Counted from the first letter of the stretch, positions 564 through 16,074 are shown. The stretch: DNA of 64,000 nucleotides from Candidatus Binatia bacterium (GCA_038245295.1 JBBRSP010000009.1:32001-96000); one strand, 5' to 3'. The notes: generated by a model not told the origin, from the sequence alone. A program made the numbers and translations.

Positions 564-1403
564 TCATGTGTCGATGGTGCGCAGCGAGACTTTGGCGGTC
601 GGCGAAGGCGGCGCGTGCTCGCGAGAGTTCAGGATTGCGTCGAGCTCACGAACGAGTTCCCGCAAGCGTCGCTCGCTGGTGTCCGGTGCAAGTGAACGGT
701 GCTCTTCGATGTCCTGCACCTTCTGGTAGTTGTTGATGACGGCCCCGACGATGAGGTTCACGAGCAGGAACGTCGCGACCACAATCCAGGAGACTTGGAA
801 AGCCGTGAACGCCCCTAGGGGATGACCAGCCTGGGCAAGCTCGTATCGCATCTGGGTCCAGTCATCGCCGGTGAGAATGCGAAAGAGCGTGAAGCACGCC
901 TCATGAATGCTGGTGAAGTAGGGATGCATGGGGTGGGCATCACCCCCGAACAACTTTACCCCGATGACGGCGTAGACGTAGAACAGGATCGCCGCCAGGA
1001 GCGCCACGTACCTCATGCTGGCGACGGATCGTAGGAGAACGTCGACGATGAGCCGCAGTTCCGGGATGGTCTTGACCAGCCGTAACACCCGGAACACGCG
1101 CAGGATGCGGAGAACCGGCCCGACCCCGCCGGACGAGGGAATGAGCGCCGCGATGACGATGACGAGATCAAAGATGTTCCACCCGTTGCGGAAGAAGGCC
1201 GCCGCCGAGTCGCGACCGAGGAATCGCAGGACGATCTCCACGACAAAGATGCCGATGCAGATCGTCTCGATTGCGGCGATGGCGCGGAGCGATGTCGTAT
1301 CGGTCAGATAGGTGCTCAGGCCGATGAGCGCGGCGTTGAGCACGATGACGGCCACAACAAAGTTATTGAAGGTTGTGGACTCGATGAGCCTACGGATGCG
1401 CAT
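564..1403 (-). CDS. Ion_trans family 6-TM voltage-gated-type cation channel (bacterial Nav/Cav-like)
   Basis: S1-S6 hydrophobic segments, WNIFD in S3, S4 with RxxRxxRxxR (LRILRVFRVLRLVK), pore helix and filter TLFRILTGDDWT, S6 NLIVGAVINN. Confidence 0.9.
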   Translation of the reverse strand: MRIRRLIESTTFNNFVVAVIVLNAALIGLSTYLTDTTSLRAIAAIETICIGIFVVEIVLRFLGRDSAAAFFRNGWNIFDLVIVIAALIPSSGGVGPVLRILRVFRVLRLVKTIPELRLIVDVLLRSVASMRYVALLAAILFYVYAVIGVKLFGGDAHPMHPYFTSIHEACFTLFRILTGDDWTQMRYELAQAGHPLGAFTAFQVSWIVVATFLLVNLIVGAVINNYQKVQDIEEHRSLAPDTSERRLRELVRELDAILNSREHAPPSPTAKVSLRTIDT

Positions 1404-1562
1404 GTCAGGTTCCTCGCTCAGTGTGCGGTTTTATGGTCGACGACTCCGGTACCCTCGCGTTTTACGAGGAGCGACACGGCGGTGGTGCTGGTTCATCTCC
1501 TGGTTGTCGCGCCCGCCTGATAGCCTGCCAGTGCGAGATCGTCCCCCCACCGCGGCGCGCCC

Positions 1563-2762
1563 TCAGTGCTTCGGTCGCGCATTCCCCCCGGGAGCCGCCC
1601 TCGCTGGTATCAACACGCTCAGCATCGTTGCGAGTGCCAGTGTGCCGACAACGACCAGGAGTGACACCGTCGTGTCGATCTTGATTGGGTCGGCCTTGGC
1701 CATGCCGATCACATCCAGATATTGCGGCACGCTCAGCAGCAGCAGCTTCACGCCGACAAAAGCCAGAATCACAATCAACGCCGGCTTCAGGAATCGGAAC
1801 TTCTGAATCAACGCCGACAGGCAGAAGTACAGCGCCCGCAGCCCGAGGATCGCGAAGATGTTGCTCGTGAACACAATGAACGGGTCGGGCGTGATCGCGA
1901 AGATGGCCGGGATCGAGTCGACCGCGAACACCAGGTCGGTGATCTCAACCAGGAGCAGTGCCAGGAATAGGGGCGTGATCGCCCAGGCCACGCTCAGCGA
2001 CCCGGCTGGCGCCGGGTCCATCACCTCCTTGCCGACCGCATCCCTCGTGTACGTCGGCTTGAGGGTCCGCTTGGTGAAGAACCTCTGCCCATCGTAGAAC
2101 TCGGTCACGCGGAAGAACCTCTTGCACAACCGCACCGCGATGTTCTGCGAGACATCGTCGTTGCCCTTGATCAGGGCCATCTTCAACGCCGTCAGGATCA
2201 GGAACCCGCCGAAGACGATCAGTATCCACTGGTACTTCAGGATCAGCCCCGCGCCCAGGAAGATCATCCCGCCGCGCATGACCAAGGCGCCGATGATGCC
2301 CCAGAAGAGCACGCGGTGCTGGTACTTTGCCGGCACCGCGAAGAACGAGAAGATGAGTGCGATGACAAAGATGTTGTCCATCGCGAGCGACTTCTCGACG
2401 ACGTACCCCACCAAATACTGCTTGGCCGCTTCGAATCCCTGCACTTCGCCCGACACGATGAGCGGTGCACCGGCCTTGATCGCCTCCGCCGTGCTGTACC
2501 TGGCGGTCTCCAACCCCAACCCGAGCCAATGGCTCTCGTACGCCAAGTACACAAACCCGCTGAACGCAATGCCACACGTCAGCCAGACCACCGACCATGC
2601 GACCGCTTCCTTCATGGCGACTTCGTGGGCTTCGCGGTGGAAGACGCCGAGGTCGAGGGCCAGGAACACGATCACGAGGCCGAGGAACGCGATGTACGCC
2701 CAGATCTTCAGATCGGCCGGGTTCGACGTCGCGGAGGTAGCAAGCAGCAGCAGTTCGTTCAT
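1563..2762 (-). CDS. terC: TerC family (Alx-like) metal-homeostasis membrane protein
   Basis: Motifs EKSLAMDNIFV, QHRVLFWGIIGALVMRG, EITDLVFAVDSIPAIFAIT, FTSNIFAILGLRALYF; ATG at 2762 with AAAGGATG RBS preferred over the longer ORF start. Confidence 0.93.
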   Translation of the reverse strand: MNELLLLATSATSNPADLKIWAYIAFLGLVIVFLALDLGVFHREAHEVAMKEAVAWSVVWLTCGIAFSGFVYLAYESHWLGLGLETARYSTAEAIKAGAPLIVSGEVQGFEAAKQYLVGYVVEKSLAMDNIFVIALIFSFFAVPAKYQHRVLFWGIIGALVMRGGMIFLGAGLILKYQWILIVFGGFLILTALKMALIKGNDDVSQNIAVRLCKRFFRVTEFYDGQRFFTKRTLKPTYTRDAVGKEVMDPAPAGSLSVAWAITPLFLALLLVEITDLVFAVDSIPAIFAITPDPFIVFTSNIFAILGLRALYFCLSALIQKFRFLKPALIVILAFVGVKLLLLSVPQYLDVIGMAKADPIKIDTTVSLLVVVGTLALATMLSVLIPARAAPGGNARPKH

Positions 2763-2829
2763 GAACAGATCACATCCTTTGTACCGCACCTGCTCAGGGA
2801 AAGCAGACGCAGCGCAACGTCGCGACAAA

Positions 2830-2902
2830 ATGCTGGTCTCGCCAAGGGCGTCGATCCGCGCTCAGAAGCGACGAGGATCAAAGCCGCTCGAGTCAACCGC
2901 AT
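2830..2902 (-). ncRNA. Possible degenerate yybP-ykoY (Mn-sensing) riboswitch
   Basis: The minus strand upstream of terC has TCGTCGCTTC inside a GATCC/GGATC stem and TTGGCGAGACC, but lacks the canonical GGGGAGTA. Confidence 0.35.
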
Positions 2903-3103
2903 CCGGCGAACAAACACGGCCCGTGGGCGTACAGCCTTCAACTCAAATGTCCGTCAGAAGACTCTTCGTAGAAATCAAGCTTTTCGACGGAAGCATCAAG
3001 ACCAGCGAGGCTCAGTACGACTACATCTTGAACAAGGTCGGGGGTGCTGGCGGCACGACTGAAGGACGCGCTGTGCACCGTCGAGGTCCGCCGGTCCGGC
3101 GTT

Positions 3104-4315
3104 TTACGCGTTGGCGAACTGCCCCATGACCTCGAGCATGAGCGTGTCGTTGGTGCCGTCCATGATCGTCAGTAGTGACGCGTCGCGCATGTGCTTCTCG
3201 AGCTTGTAGTCGCGCGAGATGCCATAGCCGCCCAGCACCTGGACCATCTCCGCCGTATGCTTTACCGCCAGGTTGGTGGCGAGGATTTTGGCGGTGACGC
3301 TGGTCTTCAGATCGCCGGGGAAGTTCTGTGCGCAGTGCCAGCTCCCCTTCCAGAGCAGGGCGCGAGCCGATTCGATGGCGGCGTGAATCTCGAAGAGCCG
3401 GCGTGACACCAGTTGATGTTCCAAGATCGGCTTGCCCCACTGCACGCGTTCGCGCGAATAGGCGAGAGCTTCTTCGAAGGCGGCGCGCATGAGGCCGACA
3501 GCCAGGTATCCGGTGCCCAGGTTGCCGACTGTCATGATCGACCGGTGCAAGTACGGATAGGCATCGCCGGGAGGGAAGATCATGTGATCTTCGGGGATCT
3601 GTACGCCGTCGAACGACACGGCGGCTTGATTCAGGGTCCGCAGGCCGATCCGGTCTTGCGCCGCGCCGCGGAAGACCCCGGCCGCCTCACCGGGCACGAT
3701 GAAGGCACCTGAGCCCTTGAGGCCTCGTTGTGGTTCAAGGCACGCAAAGATCACGTAGTTGTCGGCAATGTTACCGTTGGAAACGAAGTTCGACTTGGTG
3801 CCGTTGAGTTCGAAGCCGTTGGCCGTCTTCGTCGCGGTGGTGCGATGGTGGATGGAAATATCCTCATAATTCTTGCCGTCAGAGCCGATGCTCGGTTCGC
3901 TGCTACCCCACGCTGTGATGCGTTTGCCGGTGGTGTCCTCGCAGAACGGCACGACATATCGTTCGATCAGTTTCTGGTTGCCGGGCGTGAGAAAGCCGAT
4001 GAGTCCGGGCACGACCGAGCCGGCGATCAGGGCGGCCGCAAAGCCGCAGCCGTGGCGGCCTAGCTCTTCCCACACCATGCCGGTGGTGGCGGGATCAAGC
4101 CCCAACCCGCCGTACTCTTGCGAGATGGTCATTTTGTGAAAGCCGAGATCGAAGGCGCCGGCCAGAGTCGTTTTGAAGAGGTAGGTCTTGAAGGTCTCGT
4201 TGGGATCGGCAATCCGATCGAGCGCGATCTCCGCGGGTTCGAGCACTTCACGGCCGAAAGCCCGGGCCGTCTCGATGATCTGCACTTGGGTTTCGTTGAG
4301 CGTGAAATCGGCCAT
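3104..4315 (-). CDS. Acyl-CoA dehydrogenase family protein
   Basis: YGGLGLD, SEPSIGSD, LNGTKSNFVSNG, RVQWGKPI, QVLGGYG, IMDGTND motifs. Confidence 0.93.
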   Translation of the reverse strand: MADFTLNETQVQIIETARAFGREVLEPAEIALDRIADPNETFKTYLFKTTLAGAFDLGFHKMTISQEYGGLGLDPATTGMVWEELGRHGCGFAAALIAGSVVPGLIGFLTPGNQKLIERYVVPFCEDTTGKRITAWGSSEPSIGSDGKNYEDISIHHRTTATKTANGFELNGTKSNFVSNGNIADNYVIFACLEPQRGLKGSGAFIVPGEAAGVFRGAAQDRIGLRTLNQAAVSFDGVQIPEDHMIFPPGDAYPYLHRSIMTVGNLGTGYLAVGLMRAAFEEALAYSRERVQWGKPILEHQLVSRRLFEIHAAIESARALLWKGSWHCAQNFPGDLKTSVTAKILATNLAVKHTAEMVQVLGGYGISRDYKLEKHMRDASLLTIMDGTNDTLMLEVMGQFANA

Positions 4316-4317
4316 GG

Positions 4318-5091
4318 CTACGCATCCGGCGCGGTGAACATGTCGGTCATTTTGAAATAGTAAGGCAGGAAAGCGGCGCCATCGACTTCGGCGAGCACTT
4401 TTCCGGGGAGCATGCGATTGCTGCTCTCAATCACGAACGCCATGAGCATCTGCAGTTCGCCGAGCTCGCTCCACGGCTCCAGTGCTGAGGGCCGAAGCGT
4501 GAGCTCCGGCGTGCCGATCTCGACGCTCCGGGGCTCGATCTCGGTCTGTTGGCGGACGAGAAAAACCGGTCCGTCGAAGCCGGGTTCCAGGTCGGCGCGT
4601 GGCATCCCCTTGAACAGGTACGTAGGCCCCTGCGGCGGCAAGTCGGGCAGAGTACCCGACAACGCGATGTCGAGATCGATGAACCGGTCTCCGCCGCGTT
4701 CGACCCACCCCCGGGCGTGTTCGGCGCTCCGCTCGAGATGGATCTTCGCCGCCTTCTTGGGAAAGCCGTAGATGTCGCGGCCGTTGTGCAGGCGGCTCGC
4801 GTCACTGTCGATCGGCATCGACAGGCAGTAGCTCCCCGGTTGCCCTTGGTAACTGCAGCGGAGGAATAGCGCGGCTTCGCGGTAACCAGGCCCCAGATTG
4901 GTTTCGCCATATTCGGCGATGAAGATGAGGCCGCCCGGCATGGTCGCCTGTTCGAGCGGCGGCGGTAACAACCGGCGGGTTACCTCGGCATCAGCGCCGA
5001 ACATTACTCCCATCATGGTTGCCTGCGGGAAATGTCGCACCTTCAGGCGATAGTAGCTGGCGAGTTCCTCAACGGACTTCACGAATCCCAT
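4318..5091 (-). CDS. Acetoacetate decarboxylase-like (ADC superfamily) protein
   Basis: LLPPPLE, GPGYREAAL, GRDIYGFPKK (Schiff-base Lys motif); ATG 5091 with GAAGGAGG RBS. Confidence 0.88.
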   Translation of the reverse strand: MGFVKSVEELASYYRLKVRHFPQATMMGVMFGADAEVTRRLLPPPLEQATMPGGLIFIAEYGETNLGPGYREAALFLRCSYQGQPGSYCLSMPIDSDASRLHNGRDIYGFPKKAAKIHLERSAEHARGWVERGGDRFIDLDIALSGTLPDLPPQGPTYLFKGMPRADLEPGFDGPVFLVRQQTEIEPRSVEIGTPELTLRPSALEPWSELGELQMLMAFVIESSNRMLPGKVLAEVDGAAFLPYYFKMTDMFTAPDA

Positions 5092-5309
5092 CTCGTTCGC
5101 CTCCTTCTCCGGGCAAGCCTTCGACGATTGCGATTTGCCTGTCCGGGCCCTTGCCGATCGACGACGCTGGGTGCGACGCGTCAAGCGGTGCCGCCCAGTG
5201 TGCCGACGGGAGTCTACTCAAGGCACCATTGCACAATTCGAGTGTTGGCGCGCCTCTGTCGCACGCGCATTCTGTCTAATCGCCGCTTGCCGCGAGCTAA
5301 TGGGGAGAG

Positions 5310-5408
5310 CGCAAGTTGGACACCCATCCACAAGACTCGGCGATTGTGCCGTGAGATCAGCGCCTTGGATGAACGCACCGCTTAGCGACTGCCACTGGGC
5401 GGAGATGG
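5310..5408. repeat. 99-bp dispersed repeat, copy 1 (REP-doublet/MITE-like)
   Basis: 93/99 identical to 11809-11907 by manual alignment; GGACACCCATC ... GATGGGGGTCC imperfect terminal inverted ends. Confidence 0.9.
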
Positions 5409-5460
5409 GGGTCCTTCTTGCCGCCTCTCGCTTGCGCGTGCGAAGAATTTCAACGGACTG

Positions 5461-6372
5461 CTAACCCCAGGTGCTCGCGATGCCGTGCGCCTGCAGCGTG
5501 CCCATGATCTCGTCCCGATCGGGCTCCGCGGCCAGATTCAACGGGGCCTGGGCCGTGCACAGCCCGGCCAGTTTGGCTTCCCAGAGGGCGTGATATGGAA
5601 GCAGCGTGATCTCCCCGAATCCCACCGTTCGCAGTTGCTGCGCCACGGCGGCCAGCGTGGAGCGATCGCTATTCATTCCCGGAACAATCGGCATCCGAAC
5701 AGTGAGGTTCGCCGCCTGGCCGGCCAACCAGGCCAGGTTGTCCAGCACGTGGGCGGCGTCGCCTCCGGTCCACTGCCGGTACCCGGCGTCATTCCCGGCC
5801 TTGAGATCGAAGTACACTGCGTCCAGAAAGGGCAGCAGGGGCTCCAGCATTCGCCGCGCATAGTGGCCGGCCGTCTGCAGCAGGATGTGCACGCCCTGCT
5901 GCTTCAGCAGCGGCAGCAAGGCCTGCAGGAACGGCGACTGCAACACGGGCTCTCCACCCGACAACGTCACACCGCCACCCGAGGAAACGAAGTAGGACCG
6001 GTCGGCCAGACAGAGTTCGGCCAGTTCCTCGGGCGAGTAGTACCGGCCCACCATGCGCAAAGCCCCGCTGGGGCAGACCGCCGGGCATTGACCGCAATGG
6101 TCGCAGCGGTCCCAGTCGATTGGTGTCGTGGACCAGGGCGCCAACGCATCCCGGGGACAGACCGACTCGCAGAGCCGGCAATCGGGCAGGCACCGGGACG
6201 ACGAGAACATCAGCTCGGGGACAGGCCGCAAGGACTCGGGGTTCTGGCACCATCTGCATCGCAGGGAACAGCCCTTGAAGAATACGGTCGTCCGAATACC
6301 CGGACCGTCGTGCAACGAAAACCGCTGCACATCAAAAACCAGTCCCTCGACCCGCGGCGATTCCTCAGCCAT
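5461..6372 (-). CDS. Glycyl-radical enzyme activating protein (radical SAM with ferredoxin-like insert)
   Basis: HDGPGIRTTVFFKGCSLRCRWCQNPE (CxxxCxxC), two extra Cys clusters, GGGVTLSGGEP. Confidence 0.96.
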   Translation of the reverse strand: MAEESPRVEGLVFDVQRFSLHDGPGIRTTVFFKGCSLRCRWCQNPESLRPVPELMFSSSRCLPDCRLCESVCPRDALAPWSTTPIDWDRCDHCGQCPAVCPSGALRMVGRYYSPEELAELCLADRSYFVSSGGGVTLSGGEPVLQSPFLQALLPLLKQQGVHILLQTAGHYARRMLEPLLPFLDAVYFDLKAGNDAGYRQWTGGDAAHVLDNLAWLAGQAANLTVRMPIVPGMNSDRSTLAAVAQQLRTVGFGEITLLPYHALWEAKLAGLCTAQAPLNLAAEPDRDEIMGTLQAHGIASTWG

Positions 6373-8998
6373 GCATCGTTCGGTCGATCAGCTCGTCCTG
6401 CATCGCCCGCGTCAGATCGCAGAAATACGCGGAATAGCCCGAGATCCGAACGACCAGATCGCGGTACGAGGCAGGATCGGCCTGGGCCGCCCTCAGTGTC
6501 TGTGAATCGATAACGTTGAACTGGACCTGGGCGCCCCCCTGGGCAAAATAACCGCGGACGAGACCAAGAACCGCCGCCGCGCCCCCCGAACCGTTGGCCA
6601 GGGCCGGATTCAGCTTCAGATTCATGACCATGCCGTTGCCCGGTGTGGGCACGCGGGCGGCCGAGTTCAGGGCGGCCGTCGGCCCCCGGCTCTCGCTGCC
6701 GATCTGCGGAGAAATGCCATTGCCCAGCGGCCGGCCGGCGCGGCGTCCCGACGGCAGCGCCCCCGTGCGGCTACCCATGCCCTGGTGTGTGGTCATGCCC
6801 CAGAAACCGGCCACATAGCGCCCACCTCTCGGATGGGGCAACCGGCCCACCTCTTCGATGTAGATCCGGGCAACGGCCGCGGCCATCTCGCCGCTGCGCG
6901 GATCATCTTCGCCGTATTTGGGCAGTCGCCAGCGCAGCCGCTCCGCCAACTCGGACTCGCCGGCGAAATCGTCGTCCAGCGCGGCCAGCAGCCGCTCGGG
7001 TTCGAGTTCGCCGGAAAACACCAGGGCCTCGACGGCCACCACGGAATCGACCACATCGGCCAGTCCTATGCCCTGCAGGCCGCTCGTGTTGATATCAGCG
7101 CCCCCGGCCGTCACATCGCGGGCCCGCGCCACACATCCTTCGATGACCGTAGACAACAAGGGCGTCGGCCGCAGCAGCGCGTGAACCCGCTCGATGGCTC
7201 CGTTAGCAGTTGCGGCCCGCTCCAGTACCGCCCGCAACTGCAAGCGGAACGCCTGCAGCAAATCGTCCACCGTGCGTAGCTGCGGCAAGGGCGGGGTGGC
7301 TGGCCCTACCGCCTCGCCGTTCAGCATCCCGCCGCGTAACGCCAGTTCCAGGCAGTGCGCCAGATTGACCGTGCCAGCTCCAGCCGCCGGAAAAGAACAG
7401 CCTGGCACGCCCCATTCGGCGCAGCCGACGATGGAATAATCCCGGGCGCGTGTTGGGTCGATGCCGTCGCGCATCAGCGCCGGCACCACGGCCTCGTCCG
7501 AGAAGAACGCCGGCATCCCGCCACCCCGCCCCACGGTGCGAGCGCACAAATCCAGGAAGCCCGGATCCGAGCCGGAGTGCACGCGCACGTGGATGTTGGG
7601 TTGCCTGAGGCGCATCTGGTCGTAGGCCAGCAGGAACAGTGACGACAGCTCGTTGCTGGCGTCGGTTCCGTCGGCGAGCACGCCGCCCAGGGTGATCCCG
7701 GAAGCGGACGAAAGACCACTGACGTACTCGGTCACGCGCGAAAAGAGCAGGGGCAGCAATTCCGCCGCTTTGCCCAGAAAGCACCCCAACAACTCGACCG
7801 CCCGCGCCGGCGTCAACCGACCCGCGGCCAGGTCGTCCCGGTAATAGGGCAGCAGCAACTGATCCAGGCGCCCGAAGGACATCCCATGTTGAAAGTTCTC
7901 CTGATGCAACATCGCGTGAACGAGGATGATGCTCTGCAGTGCCTGATGAAGGGTTCGTGCCGGATGTTCGGGGACCACGGCCAGGATGTCGGCGAGTTCG
8001 GAGAGTTCGGCGCGGCGCTGAGCGTCGGACTCGCCGGCTGCCAGCTCGAGGAGGTGCTGCCGCCAGCGCCGGCCGTAATCGCAGGCCGCCTGCGCCGAGA
8101 TCGCCGATGCGTCCAGCATCGCCAACTGCTCGCGTTGCCCACGGCTGGGGCGGCCGCGGTCGATCTCGTCGAGCAGAGACCGGCGGCGCGCCTCGATCTC
8201 CGCCGCGATGCCGGCAAATCCCAGACGCAGAACCTTCCCGTGATCGGGCGTCACGTGCGATATGCCTGCAATCTGGCTGAGGGCGAAGGACCGCCCTTCT
8301 TTCATTTCGAGCAACAGCCGCTGATCGCCGATCCAGCCCGGTGCGTGGGCCATGACCGAGCGGTTAAACCAGAACGGAAAGATGCGTTCCTGCAGGTCCT
8401 TCACCTGGGCAGGCGTTGTCGCCAGCGGATTGACGGACCGCGTCGACAGGTCGGCCAAGTCACCCAGCATCAACATACCGGCAAAGTCGGGATGAATGGG
8501 TGCTCCCATTCGCCTGGAGCTGCAGTTGCCGACGATGAGTTCGTGATCGTAGGCGCGGAGCTCCATGTGGCCCAGGACATGTCGCAACGCTTCGGCCATC
8601 AGGCGCATCTGCCGCTGCGGTTCCAGGCGCCAGCTCCGGCAATAGAGCCGCATCAACCAGGAACTTGCTGTGAGTGCGAGGGCGGTTTTCGCTCCCCGCG
8701 GGTCCGCAGCGCCCTGATCCGCGCTCCGATCCATGGCGAGCAAGGTGGAGGCGTACGCGCGGTAGTGCCAGCGCGCCAGGCGGTCCAGCAGCGGGCGGCG
8801 AGGCCAGACCCGTTGCAGGTAGTCGGTCATCAACTCGGCCTTTTGGGTACACAACTCGTACGGCGCCGCCAGCAGGTCGGCCCGCAGCCGTTGCAGGCGG
8901 GGCAAGGGGCCGATGGGTTCGTCGACCGGCATCGGCGACGGCACGGGGTTCAGAGCGGCGTAATCCAGTTGATCCATCTGTCGAGCCGTGTGTCCCAT
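6365..8998 (-). CDS. Glycyl radical enzyme (PFL2/eliminase-like), substrate unknown
   Basis: C-terminal VRISGYSAYF glycyl loop, Cys loop YSIVGCAEWG, SFGRLDQ, QPNIHVR; ATG 8998 with AGAGAGGT RBS; stop overlaps the activase start. Confidence 0.95.
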   Translation of the reverse strand: MGHTARQMDQLDYAALNPVPSPMPVDEPIGPLPRLQRLRADLLAAPYELCTQKAELMTDYLQRVWPRRPLLDRLARWHYRAYASTLLAMDRSADQGAADPRGAKTALALTASSWLMRLYCRSWRLEPQRQMRLMAEALRHVLGHMELRAYDHELIVGNCSSRRMGAPIHPDFAGMLMLGDLADLSTRSVNPLATTPAQVKDLQERIFPFWFNRSVMAHAPGWIGDQRLLLEMKEGRSFALSQIAGISHVTPDHGKVLRLGFAGIAAEIEARRRSLLDEIDRGRPSRGQREQLAMLDASAISAQAACDYGRRWRQHLLELAAGESDAQRRAELSELADILAVVPEHPARTLHQALQSIILVHAMLHQENFQHGMSFGRLDQLLLPYYRDDLAAGRLTPARAVELLGCFLGKAAELLPLLFSRVTEYVSGLSSASGITLGGVLADGTDASNELSSLFLLAYDQMRLRQPNIHVRVHSGSDPGFLDLCARTVGRGGGMPAFFSDEAVVPALMRDGIDPTRARDYSIVGCAEWGVPGCSFPAAGAGTVNLAHCLELALRGGMLNGEAVGPATPPLPQLRTVDDLLQAFRLQLRAVLERAATANGAIERVHALLRPTPLLSTVIEGCVARARDVTAGGADINTSGLQGIGLADVVDSVVAVEALVFSGELEPERLLAALDDDFAGESELAERLRWRLPKYGEDDPRSGEMAAAVARIYIEEVGRLPHPRGGRYVAGFWGMTTHQGMGSRTGALPSGRRAGRPLGNGISPQIGSESRGPTAALNSAARVPTPGNGMVMNLKLNPALANGSGGAAAVLGLVRGYFAQGGAQVQFNVIDSQTLRAAQADPASYRDLVVRISGYSAYFCDLTRAMQDELIDRTMHG

Positions 8999-9131
8999 GA
9001 GCGCACCTCTCTCTTGCAGAAGTGTCTGCACCTCATTCGCATGTGGTCGTGCATACGGTTCGAGCAACGTCGGCGCGTCGGCCTAGGCGCGGTGGGGTTG
9101 CAGAAACAGCAGCCGAGACGTCCACGAGCTG

Positions 9132-9160
9132 CTTATACGCAATTCGCGCTAACTAGTCAA
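9132..9160 (-). promoter_or_regulatory. Sigma70-type promoter for the GRE operon
   Basis: Minus strand reads TTGACT-17 nt-TATAAG. Confidence 0.7.
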
Positions 9161-9174
9161 CCATGACTAATTAG
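9149..9174. promoter_or_regulatory. Palindromic operator 1 (probable TetR site)
   Basis: CTAACTAGTCA-ACCA-TGACTAATTAG with 10/11 arm symmetry, overlapping the -35 of the GRE promoter. Confidence 0.7.
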
Positions 9175-9237
9175 ACTTGCCGCGGCGTCGTGGCCCTTCG
9201 TCTACCGTGGGGAAATGCTCAGGACAGCCGCAACTTG

Positions 9238-9257
9238 AATAGTCAGACTTGACCATT
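9238..9257. promoter_or_regulatory. Palindromic operator 2 (probable TetR site)
   Basis: AATAGTCA-GACT-TGACCATT, sharing the TAGTCA-N4-TGACYA core with operator 1, just upstream of the TetR gene. Confidence 0.65.
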
Positions 9258-9283
9258 TTACCGGGGCTGCGTAAAGAGACGAC

Positions 9284-9928
9284 ATGGCTCTCTCCTCGAC
9301 CACGCTCGCGAAGCCCCGCTGCGTTCAAGCCCGGGGCGAGGCGACGCGCCTTCGCATTCTCGAGGCGACGCTCTCGTGCATCGCCGAGGAGGGCTACGCA
9401 CAGACGAGCACCGTGCGCGTCTGCGAGCGTTCGTGTACCTCGCGGGGGTCGCTGCTGCACCAGTTCTCCACCCGCGCCGAGCTAATGGCGGCGGCGGTTG
9501 CCTACCTCTTCGAGGGCCTGACGGCGGCCTATGTCGATGCCTTCGCGGGCATCCAGCCCGAGGCGACTCACGGCGTCGCCCGGCGCATCGAAGTCGCGGG
9601 CAACCTGCTACGCGCTGCCTATGCGGATCCGCGCCTGCCGGCGGTGCTCGATATCTACGCGGCTGCCCGAACCGACGCCGAGCTGATGGCCGCCCTCAGG
9701 CCCGTGGCCGCGCGGCACCGTCAGACGGTGCGCGAGATTGCGCACAAGCTCTTTCCGAAAACGGTCACATCGAAGCGCGCCAGACGCCGTCTCGAGGTGG
9801 TACTCGACGCCCTACAGGGCCTGGCTTTCCGCAGTGTAGTGTACGCCGAAGGCGCTGGTGACACGATCGAAGGTGCAAAGGAGCTTCTCGTCGAGGTCTT
9901 CACAGATGCACGCAAGGAATCCGCATGA
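9284..9928 (+). CDS. TetR/AcrR family transcriptional regulator
   Basis: N-terminal HTH: TRLRILEATLSCIAEEGYAQTSTVRVCERSCTSRGSLLHQFSTRAEL. Confidence 0.92.
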   Translation: MALSSTTLAKPRCVQARGEATRLRILEATLSCIAEEGYAQTSTVRVCERSCTSRGSLLHQFSTRAELMAAAVAYLFEGLTAAYVDAFAGIQPEATHGVARRIEVAGNLLRAAYADPRLPAVLDIYAAARTDAELMAALRPVAARHRQTVREIAHKLFPKTVTSKRARRRLEVVLDALQGLAFRSVVYAEGAGDTIEGAKELLVEVFTDARKESA

Positions 9929-10129
9929 ACGATCCGATGTTCGGCACCCAATTCCGAGTACGGGGGTTTTCGTCCGCCCACCGCGGATTGGCTGATCGAG
10001 GTCACGGAGAGGATGGCGACCAGCTACCTCGAGCATATCGATTTCGCGAACCGCGCGGCAAGCATCGAATCAGGGCCGACGCTGCTGGTTTTCGACGTGA
10101 TCAAGCAACGACTGCCGAACGGCGCGTGA
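9925..10129 (+). pseudogene. Probable truncated/frameshifted gene remnant coupled to TetR
   Basis: ATGA overlap with the TetR stop; a shifted frame at 9986-10129 (DWLIEVTERMATSYLEHIDF...) has gene-like codon usage. Confidence 0.35.
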
Positions 10130-10220
10130 CCACCGGAATTCGGCAGATCCGGAGCAGTCCGTGGCTGCAGCCCGGAACAATGACCGAGCACACCTCAACA
10201 TCAGACGCACGAGACATCCG

Positions 10221-11168
10221 ATGACCAAGCGCACACTGGACAAACGAGACATCCCCGGCGCGCTGCTGGCGGGGGCCCGTTGGCTCGCGAACCCGGTTTC
10301 CGAGGGCGGCGCCAAGCAGGTCCCCCGCATTAAGCTCCTGGCGGCCGGCCCGGAAATCCTCGGCGACATCGAGCGGATGCGGACCCATCCAACAGGCAAG
10401 CGGATTCTCGACGAGCGGCCCGATCTCGGCGCAGCCCTCTCGGACTCTGCCGCGCTGACGGCCATGCCCGCGGGAAGCCTCGGCCGGACGTTCTCCGAGG
10501 CGATGGAGATCCCCGGAGGCGTGCCCGGCTTTCTCCTGGCGGCGTTGATCTACAAGGATGGGTTCCTCGATTCTTTCGAGATGAGCGAGGATGCGCAGTA
10601 CTACATCGCACGCTCCAGGTGGCTTCATGACCTATTCCATATCGTAACCGGGTACGGCACCGACTTGCCCGGGGAAGGACTCCTCATCTACTTCGCGCTC
10701 GGATACGAGCACCGCATGCCCTATTGGGCGGCGTCCCTTGCGCCTCTCGGTATCGGCCCGAGATTCTTCATCCGACCGAGTTGCGGGCAGCGACACTGGC
10801 GAGCCCTCCTGCGGGACGCCCATGCGCGGGGGCGCGCGGCCAACCGGGTCTGCCCGCCCGAATGCGTCCCGTGGGAGGAGCTGCTTCCACGCCCCCTCGA
10901 CGAGGTCCGCGAGGAGCTCGGCATCGTCCCCTTCCTCGAAGACACGTCGCGCTGGCTCGACCACAGTTGGTTCGGGCGGCAGGCAGCGAACGGCTTCGGC
11001 GCCTACCCGAAATCGGCGAAGCGCGCACAGCTCGCCCTGGCTGTCGTGAAGGCCGGCGTCGACTACCGGGATCTGTACCGCTCCAGCGAGGAAAAAGCGG
11101 GCAAGCTCTTTCGCCTCGCCGCCGCCGGCGCCTCCGCGGAAGAGATCCGTGCCGCGGCAGCGGCCTGA
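10221..11168 (+). CDS. Coq4 family protein
   Basis: GKRILDERPDL, AMPAGSLGR, HDLFHIVTGYGTDLPGE (HDxxH-x11-E), WEELLPRPLDEVREELGI. Confidence 0.85.
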   Translation: MTKRTLDKRDIPGALLAGARWLANPVSEGGAKQVPRIKLLAAGPEILGDIERMRTHPTGKRILDERPDLGAALSDSAALTAMPAGSLGRTFSEAMEIPGGVPGFLLAALIYKDGFLDSFEMSEDAQYYIARSRWLHDLFHIVTGYGTDLPGEGLLIYFALGYEHRMPYWAASLAPLGIGPRFFIRPSCGQRHWRALLRDAHARGRAANRVCPPECVPWEELLPRPLDEVREELGIVPFLEDTSRWLDHSWFGRQAANGFGAYPKSAKRAQLALAVVKAGVDYRDLYRSSEEKAGKLFRLAAAGASAEEIRAAAAA

Positions 11169-11361
11169 CGGACGGTCTGACGGGACGCGGCGACGACTCG
11201 GACAATTCGTCCCGCCCGATTGGCAGCCCCATGTGCCGGGGGGTCGGCATCCCGGGAGCCGGGTCGTGGTGGTACAGGCTTCCAGCCTTTACCTGCCTCG
11301 GGGGCGGCCGAACCGTAGTACGGTTCGGCCGAAGTTTCGGGCGCGTCCGATATGTACCCTT

Positions 11362-11415
11362 ACACCTGATTGGACACCCACGCTCGGTGACACCTGATTG
11401 GACACCCACGCTCGG
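11362..11415. repeat. Tandem duplication of ACACCTGATTGGACACCCACGCTCGG (28-bp period)
   Basis: Two exact 26-nt copies; shares the TTGGACACCCA core with the 99-bp repeat. Confidence 0.9.
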
Positions 11416-11619
11416 AGGCGTCGGGGAGGGCTCCGGTTGCACGGCGACGCCGGCTCGAGAGCAGTTCAGATGGACTCAGTATGAGCCCAGGCGCCGACTC
11501 ACTTGGACAACATGCGGGCGCGTCGGGTAGCTGGATTGGGCGGGAGTAGGATGGATGTCCAGCGAGGCATACTCCTTGCGGGCTCCGTCTCCTCAGGGGC
11601 ACCCACCAAACTCGCCAGC

Positions 11620-11669
11620 TGTCAAGGCTCGCCTAAACTGACCGCCTCCAGCTCGGCCAAACTGACCAC
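11620..11669 (+). mobile_element. Orphan IS21-like terminal repeat
   Basis: TGTCAAGG start followed by two AAACTGACC boxes, an architecture typical of IS21 ends; no istA/istB in the window. Confidence 0.55.
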
Positions 11670-11808
11670 GCGTTTGGGATAAACATCCACAAGCGATCGA
11701 GCGAATTGTCCACAGCGTGTTGGCGTTGTTGAGGCAGACGCATTTCGCCGTGCCGCGGTGGGGCGGAGCGGCGCTGCGCAAGCTGACGCGCCGAGCGTGG
11801 GGAATGAT

Positions 11809-11907
11809 CGCAAGTTGGACACCCACCCACAAGACTCGGTGATTGTGCTGTGAGATCAGCGCCTTGGATGAACGCACCGCTTAGCGACTGTCACCAGGCG
11901 GAGATGG
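11809..11907. repeat. 99-bp dispersed repeat, copy 2
   Basis: Direct repeat of 5310-5408 with 6 substitutions. Confidence 0.9.
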
Positions 11908-12304
11908 TGAAGATCGGTCAAAGCGACGGCACCGTGGATCGCAGTCGATGGTCAGCCTTTGGGAGCCGTGGAGGGGTGAACCGAGGAGTCGCCCGGTGTC
12001 TTCAAAAGCGATACCGCCGTCCCGAAGCACGGAATGGGGTGTGGGGAAGATTTTGCGCCATTCCGATCCTCGGAACGGCCGACAAAGAAGTTGGGTAGCC
12101 ATTCCGTTGTGGGTTCCATCAGTCTGAGTTTATCCAAGGCCGTTCCGTCATTCAGTTGACGATCTTTCGTGCGATCTGACCCGATCGCCATTGGCTCGTG
12201 GTCGCGCGGGAGCCGTGCAAGCGCTCACGCGTCTTTAGATTTTGCACCACGACGGACACGAAGACCACGACGCGGGCTTTGCCCGCAAACCCAACGCAGG
12301 CCTA

Positions 12305-12411
12305 TTGCCACAGATGAATGGGATGAACACAGATGGCTTGTAAACAGACATCGCCAGCATCGCAGGCCCGACGGGCCTGCATCTGTGTGCATCCGTGTCC
12401 ATCCGTGGCAA
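12305..12411. repeat. Imperfect long inverted repeat (CACAGATGAA...CACAGATG type)
   Basis: 12305-12335 pairs with 12380-12411; inner GC hairpin GCAGGCCC-GAC-GGGCCTGC. Confidence 0.8.
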
Positions 12412-12437
12412 AGAGCGGCTGGTGGTGTGTAGGTCGC

Positions 12438-13679
12438 TCAATCTTCGCGCGCCGCCGCGAACAGCTGCTGCACGATCTGTCTGGCCGCTGAGTTCTGGAG
12501 CGACCGGTTCTGAAGGTCCGCGTCCAGGACTCGTTCGAGCGCTGCGCTCTGCGCCGCGGTTCGTAGGAAACCGGCGCAACGTTGAACCTCGGGCAGCAAC
12601 GCTCCGCTGGCGGCCGCCACGGCGGTGCGGACTTGCGCCAGCGTCAGACCGGCGGCGGGAGCTTCGGTTGAGTTGGCTTGGATCTCCTTGGCGAGACGAA
12701 TCAGGATCTCGAAGAGTGCCGCGGCGCCGTCGGGTGAGAGATGCAACTGGGCGGCGTCGGCGCGGGCCCGGGCCAGCACGGCTGTCTCTTGTGCCGCATC
12801 GGTGATCGGCACTCCGTCGCGGCGCTTCACCGCGGCGACGCTGGGCATGAGGCTGAAGCGCAGATCGATGTCGGCCGCGATGGCTTCGTAACACGCCTGC
12901 TGCGGCGTTAGACGCGCGAACTCACCGAGTTCAGCGCGCTGTTCGTCGAGCCAGCCGTCGCTCTCGCGCGCCGCCAGCCAGTCGTTCAGTTGATCGCGCA
13001 GCGGCAGGTGATCGAGCGGCAGGGCGATGGCTTTGCGATCGTGGGTGAACGGGCCGCAGGTCACGACGCCCTTCCATGTGGAGGCTTCGTACAGGTCACT
13101 GATCACGGCGTCGGCCTGCGCTGCGGCGAGAAGCTCTGGGAGTTTCAGATTGTTGGGTGTCGGCGCGATCGTCGCGTGCGGAAAGTGCAGACGCGTAACG
13201 CGCTCGAGATGGCCACCCGCATTCACCGCCAGGCGCACGGCAGGCTGATCCAGCGACTCCAGCGTCGGGAAGCGCTCGCGGTTGGCCGGCAACAAAACGG
13301 CAACGGCACCGCTCACGGCGTAGGGTCGAGTGAATGCCATCGACAGAGCCCGGTCGCCGCGCAGCGTGATTCCGCACAGCGCGAAATCCATGGTGCCGGC
13401 GCTCAAACTCGCCTGCAGCTCCGGCCACCGAAACGGCGCTGCCACGGGTGTCCCCAGTTGCAGATCAGCAACGAAGCGCCGCGCCAGTTTCAGATCGAAC
13501 CCGTCGTAGCCAAGCCAAGCTGTCGGATTGGTGCCGCAGAACGGCAGGTAGTCACCCGTGAGCCCGATGCGCGGACCTGCCGCCGGCACCGCCGCCGGCG
13601 ACGGACCTGCCGGTCGCGAGGTACATCCGATCGCAAGACAGAGGAGACCCAGCAGTGGGCAGCGGAGTCGAGTGCGCAT
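12438..13679 (-). CDS. Exported cyclohexadienyl dehydratase (PheC/SBP_bac_3 fold) fused to an AroQ-type chorismate mutase; predicted lipoprotein
   Basis: Lipobox LAIGC; RIGLTGDYLPF, GFDLKLA, LAVNAGGHLER in the PheC part; C-terminal IDLRFSLMPSVAAVKRRDGVPITDAAQE resembles periplasmic AroQ. Confidence 0.75.
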   Translation of the reverse strand: MRTRLRCPLLGLLCLAIGCTSRPAGPSPAAVPAAGPRIGLTGDYLPFCGTNPTAWLGYDGFDLKLARRFVADLQLGTPVAAPFRWPELQASLSAGTMDFALCGITLRGDRALSMAFTRPYAVSGAVAVLLPANRERFPTLESLDQPAVRLAVNAGGHLERVTRLHFPHATIAPTPNNLKLPELLAAAQADAVISDLYEASTWKGVVTCGPFTHDRKAIALPLDHLPLRDQLNDWLAARESDGWLDEQRAELGEFARLTPQQACYEAIAADIDLRFSLMPSVAAVKRRDGVPITDAAQETAVLARARADAAQLHLSPDGAAALFEILIRLAKEIQANSTEAPAAGLTLAQVRTAVAAASGALLPEVQRCAGFLRTAAQSAALERVLDADLQNRSLQNSAARQIVQQLFAAARED

Positions 13680-13765
13680 GGGTGCGCACGGTTGACACGG
13701 GCTGGAGTGGCAGGCAAGAGACGGCGGTTTCCCGGCAGCCTGGAAGCAGCTAAGGATCGAACCCG

Positions 13766-14245
13766 ATGGCACAACTGACGCAAAAGGAATTCAACTACGC
13801 GGTCGCCCTCCTCGCCCAGAACATGGGTTTGCAGCGCTTGCGCGACCGTTTGGTCAACATCCACGCCCTGACGACGCGCCGCGGCGTCAATTCGGCGGAG
13901 CAGCTCGCCGACCAACTCTACCTCCTCACCGGGGCCTTGCGTCGCCAAGTATCGGCGACGTTTGGATTCTACGCGCTGTGGAACGAATGCTTGCACGCCA
14001 AGCTTGGGGAAGAAGGCGAACAGCAGCTCGAAAAACTTGCCGAGGCGGTTAATGCCTGTTTGGGCGAACGCGACGTCATCATCGAAGAAAAGAGCGCCGA
14101 GCTCGACGCGGCGCTCAAGGTCTACGAAGAAGCGCTTGCCGAGAAGACCGGCAGCGAATTGGCGTGGATGGACATGATGCTGAAGGCCGTTCCTGGAGTA
14201 GCCGAACGTCTGCGCAGCAAGTCGCCGATCGGCGCCGCCGAGTAG
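13766..14245 (+). CDS. Hypothetical helical protein upstream of murE
   Basis: 159-aa ORF with typical codon bias, TAAGGA RBS, 12 bp before murE. Confidence 0.75.
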   Translation: MAQLTQKEFNYAVALLAQNMGLQRLRDRLVNIHALTTRRGVNSAEQLADQLYLLTGALRRQVSATFGFYALWNECLHAKLGEEGEQQLEKLAEAVNACLGERDVIIEEKSAELDAALKVYEEALAEKTGSELAWMDMMLKAVPGVAERLRSKSPIGAAE

Positions 14246-14257
14246 GCTCGTCTCGGA

Positions 14258-15775
14258 ATGGGCCTGGGTCCAAAGCCACTCGCGCAGCTCCTCGAACGAA
14301 TTCCGCATACCTGCCTGTGCGGCGATCCGGCGGTTGCCGTGCGACGCGTTGTCGCGGACTCGCGGCAGGTTGAGCCGGGCGACGTCTTCGTCTGCCTGCC
14401 CGGCTATCGTGCCGAGGGCGGCGAGAGGCGTGCCGATCGTCACGAATTCGCGTCGGTTGCCGTGGAACGCGGCGCCGTGGCGCTGGTCGTCGAACGTGAA
14501 GTCGACGTGCCCGCCGGAATCACCGTGGTGCAGGTGACCGATGCGTGGCAAGCGATCGCGCAGATGGCCTGTGCCGTCTTCGACCATCCGTCGCATCACT
14601 TGCTGACCATCGGCGTCACCGGCACCGCCGGCAAGACCTCGACGACATACTTCATCGAATCGGTCCTACGTCAGGCTGGGCGTCACCCGGCACGCCTCGG
14701 AACCATCGAGTACCGCATCGGCGACACGGTTCTACCGGCGGCGCAGACGACTCCGGAGGCGCCGCAGCTGCAACGGCTGCTGCGACTGGCTGTCGATCAG
14801 CACTGCGAGTCGGTGGTGATGGAGGTGTCGTCGCACGCGCTCGAGTTGCAGCGTGTTGGCGGTGTTGAATTCGACGTCGGCGTGTTCACTAACCTGAGCC
14901 AGGACCATCTCAACTTCCATCCCGACATGCATCACTACAGGCGCGCCAAGGGGCGGTTGTTCGAGTCGCTCGGCAGTGGCGGCAAGCAGGCGACGGCGGT
15001 GGTCAACAGCGACGATCCGGCGTGCGACTTCATGCTGTCCCTGAATCGCAGCCGGGCCATCACCTTCGGCGTCAACGAGCGCGCCGATGTGCGCGCCATC
15101 GATGTGGTCTCCGACCTGCGCGGCACGCGCTACACCGCCATCACGGCGCTTGGCCCGGTCGACGTCGCCATCCCGCACCTCGGCGAGTTTCACGTGCACA
15201 ACTCACTGGCGGCATTGGCAACCGGGGTGAGCCTCGACATCGGCCTGGAAACGATCGCCACCGGCCTGGCAGCGGCGCCTGACGTGCCGGGGCGCTTCGA
15301 GCTGGTCGACGCCGGGGCCGGTCAGCAGTTCCGTGTCGCCGTCGACTACGCGCACAAACCCGATGCTCTGGAACGCCTACTGCGCGGGGCGCGCGGGCTG
15401 CAGCCGCGCCGCCTGATTACCGTGTTCGGTTGTGGCGGCGATCGCGATCGCGCCAAGCGTCCGATCATGGGCAGCATCGCCGCCCGGTTGAGTGATCGGG
15501 TCATCGTCACCTCCGACAACCCGCGCCACGAAACACCCGAGAGCATCGTCGACGAGATCCTGGCGGGGGCGCGTGACAGCGGTGGCGCGGCGCAGGTATC
15601 GGTCGCGGTCGATCGGGCGGCGGCCATCGACCAAGCCATCCAGGAGGCGCAAGCCGGCGATCTCGTGCTGATCGCCGGCAAAGGTCACGAGACCTATCAG
15701 CTCTTCGCCGACCACCAGATCCACTTCGATGACCGCGAAGTGGCGCGACAGGCGCTGCGGCGCCGTCTGGGGTGA
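14258..15775 (+). CDS. murE: UDP-N-acetylmuramoyl-L-alanyl-D-glutamate--2,6-diaminopimelate ligase
   Basis: GVTGTAGKTS P-loop, TTPE, MEVSSHAL, FTNLSQDHL, VDYAHKPD, FGCGGDRD, SDNPR, AGKGHE. Confidence 0.96.
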   Translation: MGLGPKPLAQLLERIPHTCLCGDPAVAVRRVVADSRQVEPGDVFVCLPGYRAEGGERRADRHEFASVAVERGAVALVVEREVDVPAGITVVQVTDAWQAIAQMACAVFDHPSHHLLTIGVTGTAGKTSTTYFIESVLRQAGRHPARLGTIEYRIGDTVLPAAQTTPEAPQLQRLLRLAVDQHCESVVMEVSSHALELQRVGGVEFDVGVFTNLSQDHLNFHPDMHHYRRAKGRLFESLGSGGKQATAVVNSDDPACDFMLSLNRSRAITFGVNERADVRAIDVVSDLRGTRYTAITALGPVDVAIPHLGEFHVHNSLAALATGVSLDIGLETIATGLAAAPDVPGRFELVDAGAGQQFRVAVDYAHKPDALERLLRGARGLQPRRLITVFGCGGDRDRAKRPIMGSIAARLSDRVIVTSDNPRHETPESIVDEILAGARDSGGAAQVSVAVDRAAAIDQAIQEAQAGDLVLIAGKGHETYQLFADHQIHFDDREVARQALRRRLG

Positions 15776-16074
15776 ATCGCTGCGGTGCCTTCACTCACGC
15801 TGAGCACAGCGAGTGTGCCCGAGTGAGTACGTTTAATCCCGAGTGGCGCGTTGGTTTCGACGGTTGCCCAGGCCGGAGCGCGTCGCTCCGCGACCGCCCG
15901 ACTTCGGAATCCGCAACACGCTAGACGTTCCACCGCCAGGCGCCACGGAGTGGCGCGCTCCGGGCGATCCCGATTGATCGACCTATCCGCCGGCGGATCA
16001 GAAAGGCGGTTGCGTCCGGGGCGCGGCCGATACTAGAAGCGCCTGGCGTTTCATAAACACATTGGAGGTTCCCT

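Follow-up and report, generated by a model that had tools for sequence, protein, structure and literature searches.

According to a review, a CXE motif marks the eliminases and isomerases among the glycyl radical enzymes (GREs), and His164 acts as the acid in glycerol dehydratase (GD) (PMC13450708). The eliminase substrates treated in its section 5.6 are all small polar molecules, and sections 4.4 and 7 present the function of a further GRE, PFL2 of Archaeoglobus fulgidus (AfPFL2; PDB 2F3O), as unknown and debated (PMC13450708). Here, an oxygen-sensitive GRE encoded together with its activase is described from a stretch of 64,000 nt of Candidatus Binatia bacterium (GCA_038245295.1 JBBRSP010000009.1:32001-96000), hereafter called the window, which is part of contig C9 of a 6.6-Mb host genome (96.6% complete). 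Judged by its sequence, this GRE belongs to a clade that is distinct from the characterised-type GREs placed in our tree, and the functional unit of the locus is the GRE with its activase.

Phylogeny, active site and insertion of the GRE

The GRE (P0001, 877 amino acids (aa); 6365-8998, minus strand) matches the PFL-like (PF02901, E 3.7e-146) and Gly_radical (PF01228) domains and starts with the ATG at 8998, downstream of a Shine-Dalgarno (SD)-like sequence. Its stop is overlapped, as stated in an initial annotation of the window, by the activase gene (5461-6372, minus strand); 8 nt are shared. The activase carries a Radical_SAM domain (E 5e-16) with the CxxxCxxC motif and a ferredoxin insert, and it exceeds the cut-off of TIGR02494 (283 bits vs. 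174). The features of the GRE superfamily are present, i.e. a RISGY Gly loop with G854, a Cys loop with C526 (C-A-E), the 10-stranded barrel fold as modelled, and an own activase. The structure model (pLDDT 89) reaches a TM score of 0.85 to solved GREs; Foldseek ranked propanediol dehydratase (PD), GD, and AfPFL2 highest, followed by benzylsuccinate synthase (BSS), hydroxyphenylacetate decarboxylase (HPAD), and pyruvate formate-lyase (PFL). Matches in the ESM Atlas bore only generic names, of PFL-like proteins and short-chain dehydrogenases/reductases (SDRs).

A homologue search scored 8000 proteins and yielded 260 at E <= 1e-50; the details of the family are taken from the 120 listed. The family comprises at least 120 proteins, which among the matches listed are 46-100% identical to the GRE and 809-899 aa long, with Binatia, Myxococcota, Deltaproteobacteria, Desulfobacteraceae, Schekmanbacteria, and one Alphaproteobacterium as named sources. 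When representatives at 50% identity were scored with the family profile, two members reached 1222 and 974 bits, and the highest-scoring non-member reached 863 bits. A quick IQ-TREE phylogeny with 124 rows, made up of 45 of the 121 family members, 72 further representatives, and seven references from plasmid records, was rooted at its midpoint only and left out AfPFL2, IslA, BssA, and HpdB. In this tree, the family forms one side of a long branch (SH-aLRT 100), apart from GD, PD, CutC, HypD, PflD, and YbiW; the GRE, which is 31-34% identical to the characterised-type references, groups with none of those placed, in support of the initial annotation. The family is sparse: it was found in 6/301 genomes of the host class, in 9/401 of the phylum of genome G690, and, at about 50% identity or above, in 3/401 of the host phylum. 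No published account of the clade was found in a literature search outside of which most subscription papers and supplements lay, so that a published sequence-similarity network may include it.

Other members of the superfamily were also observed. The host genome encodes a second GRE of another clade (L127, contig C5, about 221.7-225 kb; 36% identity) with a short activase. Genome G015 holds an other-clade GRE with a 1001-aa open frame and a long N-terminal extension (L135-L136, contig C45, about 43.4-46.4 kb), and several GREs of about 1000 aa also occur among the representatives.

The catalytic residues are conserved throughout the family. H248, H371, C526, and E528 are kept in all 120 homologues and G854 in 119, and these five positions align with H164, H281, C433, E435, and G763 of GD. 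The C-x-E motif of eliminases and isomerases is found as C526-x-E528 (120/120), and the corresponding chemistry is predicted for the GRE with good confidence. The His acid and the Cys/Glu pair of GD and PD are likewise found (H248, C526, E528); the remaining pocket and the phylogenetic grouping are different. Relative to GD, D447 is replaced by G540 (120/120), Y339 by A432 (119/120), S282 by G372 (120/120), and Y640 by W733 (120/120), and F369, Q370, W529, F536, M735, and H738 are further invariant residues of the family. This pattern may reflect a conserved carbinol-binding end next to room opened for a larger substituent. In the sub-branch of the window, the clade residues are exchanged at three positions (F418L, F426V, and F543T).

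The second hallmark is a clade-specific, basic and aromatic two-helix insertion (8621-8815, minus strand; residues ~62-126, with helices predicted at 69-93 and 103-122). It amounts to about 52 residues that are not present in the other GREs sampled: in 117 of 121 members, the span between residues 54 and 135 is 70-83 residues long (two have 25-26 and one has 64), and the equivalent span counts 21-30 residues in 78 of 79 other GREs, one fragment having none. The mean net charge of the insertion is +7.4. With a lipid-binding discriminant of the HeliQuest type, both helices passed the threshold in 68-69% of members vs. 0-31% for 13 other segments, a score driven by positive charge, with hydrophobic moments of 0.32-0.34 that core helices equal or exceed. 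The insertion is a candidate membrane-docking hairpin. By analogy, and not as evidence, a report on oleate hydratase describes membrane docking via a basic helix-turn-helix (PMC10847778).

Genomic context and regulation

In other genomes, the family is embedded in a recurring operon. Of 94 other loci examined, 20 lack the motifs of the family and were set aside as other clades, which leaves 74 loci in 31 clusters at 70% identity; neighbours were recorded within 6 kb, with at least 2.5 kb available downstream at 45 loci, upstream at 33, and on both sides at 24. The activase was found at 39 loci (24 clusters), an extended SDR at 25 (16 clusters; 22 with strong orthologue-level scores), a classical SDR at 22 (15 clusters; 20 with such scores), and a TetR regulator at 16 (11 clusters). 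The usual order is TetR, GRE, activase, classical SDR, and extended SDR, shuffled in some cases. The classical SDR exceeded the PRK06181 cut-off in 5/5 tested, and OleD or HpnA gave the best score for the extended SDR in 4/4 tested, far below the cut-off. Folding the classical SDR from its sequence alone gave a model of pLDDT 41, too poor for use. The host genome has a homologue of the classical SDR (302 bits) on another contig. The usual module is incomplete there, since the extended SDR is without a close orthologue (best score 122 bits vs. 384-577).

Some relatives show deviating arrangements. At 20/74 loci, all of one cluster, the GRE is accompanied by dsrAB and has no adjacent activase; in this sub-clade (L029, L031-L050, L056, L059, L061, L062; one 70% cluster), the genes are divergent and occur with dsrN-like, dsrC, and dsrMK-like genes. 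The activases in the operons of L222 and L224 are short (239-247 aa), seem to lack the ferredoxin insert, and follow both SDRs. An operon at L230:5717-9273 (G000 contig C17) combines a thiamine pyrophosphate (TPP) enzyme, an extended SDR, and the closest counterpart in the host genome of the classical SDR that is linked to the GRE elsewhere, and is possibly a parallel lyase-plus-two-SDR layout; the best PDB match of the TPP enzyme is the 2-hydroxyacyl-CoA lyase/synthase 8VZD (E 7e-60), and all NCBIfam models stayed below cut-off. In two types of the dropped, more distant GRE loci, an acyl-CoA dehydrogenase (ACAD) lies close to the GRE (L095, L119, L125; 23-29% identity).

In the window, the GRE and its activase lie among four other genes. 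An ACAD (3104-4315, minus strand; Pfam Acyl-CoA_dh_1, E 2.6e-33; below cut-off for all NCBIfam equivalogs) and an acetoacetate decarboxylase (ADC)-like gene (4318-5091, minus strand; Pfam ADC, E 5.4e-39; FPKK lysines kept) follow in the orientation of the GRE, the latter starting at 5091 with a strong SD sequence and spaced 2 nt from the ACAD. On the plus strand, a TetR regulator (9284-9928; TetR_N, E 1e-9) and a Coq4-like gene (10221-11168; Coq4, E 4.9e-17; HDxxH-x11-E motif) are divergent from the GRE. The activase-ADC gap measures 369 nt and the GRE-TetR gap 285 nt; the GC content at third codon positions (GC3) is alike across the six genes (0.78-0.82), no terminator-like site was detected in the activase-ADC gap by a promoter/terminator scan, and an Rfam search of 2700-12500 gave no match. 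The six genes with their order and strands were recovered as initially annotated, both by open reading frame (ORF) and by Pfam/NCBIfam annotation. Likewise, none of the microcompartment, alcohol or aldehyde dehydrogenase, ProC, or small-subunit genes reported as missing was seen among 12 ORFs annotated within 564-17691. The flanks (564-2828 and 12438-17691) encode an ion-channel domain protein, TerC, a solute-binding/chorismate mutase fusion, a Mur ligase, and an AMP-binding acyl-CoA ligase.

The locus is very probably a mosaic of three modules: GRE with activase, TetR with Coq4-like gene, and ADC-like gene with ACAD. The initial annotation had assembled them into one pathway, leading from the GRE via the ADC-like protein to the ACAD with Coq4, and had made it depend on co-occurrence of these neighbours with GRE homologues. 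ADC, ACAD, and Coq4 were each found at 0/74 other family loci within 6 kb, and the modules occur apart in genomes G015, G004, and G042, which speaks against such a pathway. G015 contains ADC-ACAD orthologues in the same order (68% identity each) without a family GRE (best E 4e-121); an other-clade GRE, 33% identical, lies on the same contig 26 kb off. No convincing alignment was obtained between the ADC upstream regions of the window and G015. Orthologues of TetR (72%) and the Coq4-like protein (78%) are adjacent in G004, and G042 has a Coq4 orthologue (93%) without TetR; no PF02901 match was found in G004 (100% complete) or G042 (95% complete). Window positions 9958-11174, which cover the Coq4-like gene plus some 260 nt of upstream sequence, share 90% DNA identity with L187:6827-8048 of G042. 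Since G042 belongs to another family, this identity suggests a recent transfer of the block.

The junction between activase and ADC-like gene is occupied by a repeat of about 110 bp (5311-5421), similar to a miniature inverted-repeat transposable element (MITE), with inverted ends of the GGACACCC/GGGTGTCC type. The repeat that the initial annotation had placed here is therefore real, and its warning that the linkage across it could be accidental is the better reading of the neighbourhood data. Blastn returned 19 matches genome-wide, the own copy included, and a second copy lies at 11806-11907. The latter is part of an intergenic region of 1.27 kb (11169-12437), in which repeats of several kinds that recur across the genome are found (69 blastn matches). 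A mobile unit of GRE, TetR, and Coq4 bounded by direct repeats at 5307 and 11806 was considered and rejected as weak, given the 19 matches of the repeat, a GC3 equal to that of the neighbours, and the existence of TetR-Coq4 without the GRE.

The divergent gap harbors two palindromes. Operator 1 (TAGTCA-N4-TGACTA, 9149-9174) overlaps the -35 element of a candidate GRE promoter, and operator 2 (9238-9257), the putative autoregulatory site of the TetR family, lies 43 nt before the TetR start. Operator 1 is the only perfect match in the genome, and the two palindromes (TAGTCA-N4-TGAC[TC]A) are its only matches at one mismatch or fewer; no copy was found near ADC or Coq4 at this stringency. The palindrome occurs within 200 nt upstream at 18/26 TetR homologue loci (the window counted) vs. 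49/1080 random windows, and because of this enrichment it is regarded as the operator of the TetR subfamily. The candidate sigma-70 promoter of GRE and activase (9132-9160, minus strand; TTGACT, 17 nt, TATAAG) scored 10/12 matches with our own script, a value reached by 9/1000 shuffles. Repression of this promoter by TetR is predicted as rather likely. Operator 2 is conserved in G004, and operator 1 was not found upstream of the TetR orthologue there. The control of the GRE by TetR, suggested from the outset, is thus plausible via operator 1, but it looks recruited, as the site at 9149 is missing in G004 and overlaps the candidate -35.

Elsewhere, the TetR subfamily keeps other company. A gene of the fatty-acid-hydroxylase family is present at 16/27 TetR homologue loci, and distant TetR paralogues mostly precede such genes. 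This neighbour, for which no PDB match was obtained, presumably resembles alkylglycerol monooxygenase. Paralogous pairs of TetR and fatty-acid hydroxylase with the same operator were observed at L193:4881-8056 (G000 contig C1) and at L163-L177; directly upstream of the pair in L193 lies a pyridoxal-phosphate (PLP) decarboxylase-family gene, which we take to be sphingosine-1-phosphate-lyase-like.

Candidate substrates and rival explanations

We favour, at about even confidence, a GRE acting as a 1,2-eliminase whose substrate is a bulky diol or amino-alcohol, possibly a lipid. The initial annotation had proposed a lipid-like or CoA-linked substrate feeding decarboxylation and dehydrogenation; this route is dropped, and a lipid-like substrate stays as the leading, if tentative, guess. 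The activase would install the Gly854 radical, from which a thiyl radical at Cys526 would be generated. The latter would take hydrogen from the carbinol carbon of a substrate whose carbinol OH is held by Glu528. His248 would assist the departure of the neighbouring group (OH, OR, or NH2), yielding an aldehyde or ketone as in the glycerol and propanediol dehydratases. The three pocket positions with small invariant residues, together with the basic hairpin, suggest that the substrate is bulky and probably hydrophobic or membrane-borne, and the two SDRs of the relatives could reduce the product or invert a stereocentre of the substrate. Hints at a lipid are the lipid-binding score of the hairpin, the best scores of the extended SDR to OleD or HpnA, and the fatty-acid-hydroxylase genes at TetR homologue loci. 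In the host genome, the operon may have lost the SDRs, and control may have passed to the neighbouring TetR via an extra operator. A bolder version, in which the hairpin-docked GRE cleaves or dehydrates a lipid (mono-alkyl glyceryl ether, long-chain 1,2-diol, or sphingoid base) without oxygen, seems rather unlikely. If true, such an enzyme would parallel, as an anaerobic counterpart, the fatty-acid-hydroxylase-family enzymes usually controlled by the TetR subfamily, and a lipid-acting, membrane-docking GRE would represent new chemistry in anaerobic lipid turnover in sediments.

Several points weigh against this eliminase with a bulky substrate, among them the charge-driven lipid-binding score, the low scores of the extended SDR, and its missing counterpart in the host genome. 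The pocket roles of S282, Y339, D447, and Y640 in GD are those we presume, and the VIA-align Z scores for GD, PD, CutC, and HypD are almost tied (51-53). The contigs of P0002 and P0003, which at 70-71% are the closest homologues, lie outside the 74 loci. With regard to regulation, a stricter promoter scanner, which requires T at the last -10 position, reported no promoter. The fatty-acid-hydroxylase gene lies within 6 kb at 0/74 GRE loci (one at about 6 kb in L071), and the TetR preceding the family GRE in L001 is of the same broad subfamily and not an orthologue of the window TetR.

Among the rival explanations, a small polar substrate (a sugar/polyol derivative or an amino alcohol), as in YbiW, PflD, or HypD, is possible though doubtful; in that case, the insertion would serve as an interface to the activase or within an oligomer, and the SDRs would be sugar-type oxidoreductases. 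The CxE motif and His pair are common with sugar isomerases, Q242, Q370, T736, and H738 are polar and invariant, and the extended SDR also matches Epimerase/GDP_Man_Dehyd, but F, W, M, G, and A abound in the invariant segments of the pocket, and no recurrent neighbour belongs to a phosphotransferase system (PTS), kinase, aldolase, or ProC family. One TetR-controlled route, with GRE, ADC-like protein, and ACAD (with the Coq4-like protein) acting on a CoA-linked or lipid substrate, is highly improbable. Shared orientation, uniform GC3 (0.78-0.82), and a terminator-free junction between activase and ADC would agree with it, and the substrate could have changed in a sub-branch with F418L, F426V, and F543T and missing SDRs. 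Yet the arrangement recurs at none of the 74 family loci, both pairs exist without the GRE, and a 369-nt gap with the MITE intervenes, with no operator near ADC or Coq4 at one mismatch or fewer.

The dsrAB linkage bears on a C-S lyase that frees sulfite from a hydroxy-sulfonate, e.g. a sulfonolipid, for DsrAB. Twenty loci of one 70% cluster are divergent from dsrAB, and L082 and L087 carry TauE/SafE genes downstream; since the linkage concerns 1/31 clusters and the HpsG model yields 407 bits (cut-off 1000), this function is very unlikely. According to section 5.6.3 of the review, two Arg and one Gln bind the sulfonate in C-S lyases (PMC13450708); no Arg is present in the consensus segments 238-250 and 729-742 of the family, the probable counterparts of that site, and this is indirect evidence. 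Fumarate addition to alkanes or similar compounds would follow the proposal for AfPFL2, the best sequence match of the GRE, for which the review mentions the suggestion of a (1-methylalkyl)succinate synthase (MASS) (PMC13450708), and Binatota are predicted alkane degraders, aerobically, in a further study (PMC8262859). This activity is scarcely probable: BSS and MASS match at only E 1e-50 to 1e-54 with Z scores of 36-42 vs. 49-53, no space exists for small-subunit genes beside the GRE, the CxE motif and His pair are retained, and the pocket motifs are unlike those of AfPFL2 (FQHG vs. YEQA; G540 vs. Asp).

For the preferred eliminase reading, guesses about the substrate should rely on the SDR pair of the relatives and not on ADC, ACAD, and Coq4 of the window. 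The clade is a well-defined target because of its invariant pocket, unique insertion, cognate activase, two-SDR operon, and AfPFL2 as best solved match.

Comparison with known GREs

PFL carries a Cys-Cys pair, in place of which the GRE has C-A-E, and TIGR01255 yields 99 bits against a cut-off of 994. The arylacetate decarboxylases HpdB and the indoleacetate decarboxylase (IAD) are similarly remote (203 and 254 bits vs. NCBIfam cut-offs of 1150 and 1100). Unlike BssA and MasD, the GRE is without adjacent small-subunit genes and is flanked by its activase and the 285-nt divergent gap. The Cys loop with CxE and the fold are in common with CutC, HypD, PflD, YbiW, HpsG, and HpfG; the CutC, HypD, PflD, and YbiW references are 31-34% identical to the GRE, and the NCBIfam models of CutC, HypD, HpsG, HpfG, and PflD (none exists for YbiW) give 382-421 bits, short of cut-offs of 1000-1109.

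GD (1R8W/1R9D) and PD (5I2A/5I2G, 9RCO) rank first among the structural matches (Z 52.8 and 52.7; rmsd, root-mean-square deviation, 1.7-1.8 Å). The GRE shares with them the equivalents of the catalytic H164, H281, C433, E435, and G763 and the long-type activase. It differs in overall sequence (33% identity), in the pocket (D447>G, Y339>A, S282>G, Y640>W, P436>W), by its extra insertion and separate clade, and in that the family is accompanied by two SDRs instead of alcohol dehydrogenase or microcompartment genes. The best sequence match is AfPFL2 (E 5e-138, 465 bits; 728 bits with the profile). AfPFL2, which stood outside the tree, is without the insertion of about 52 residues and differs in the pocket motifs (YEQA, QATNQA, SSDAA, and CYPMTTN vs. 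FQHG, LSSASG, AAGA, and FWxMTTH in the GRE), whereas both proteins superimpose with an rmsd of 1.6-1.8 Å at 32-35% identity and have the AGISH, HQE, and RLRQPN segments and the CxE motif in common.

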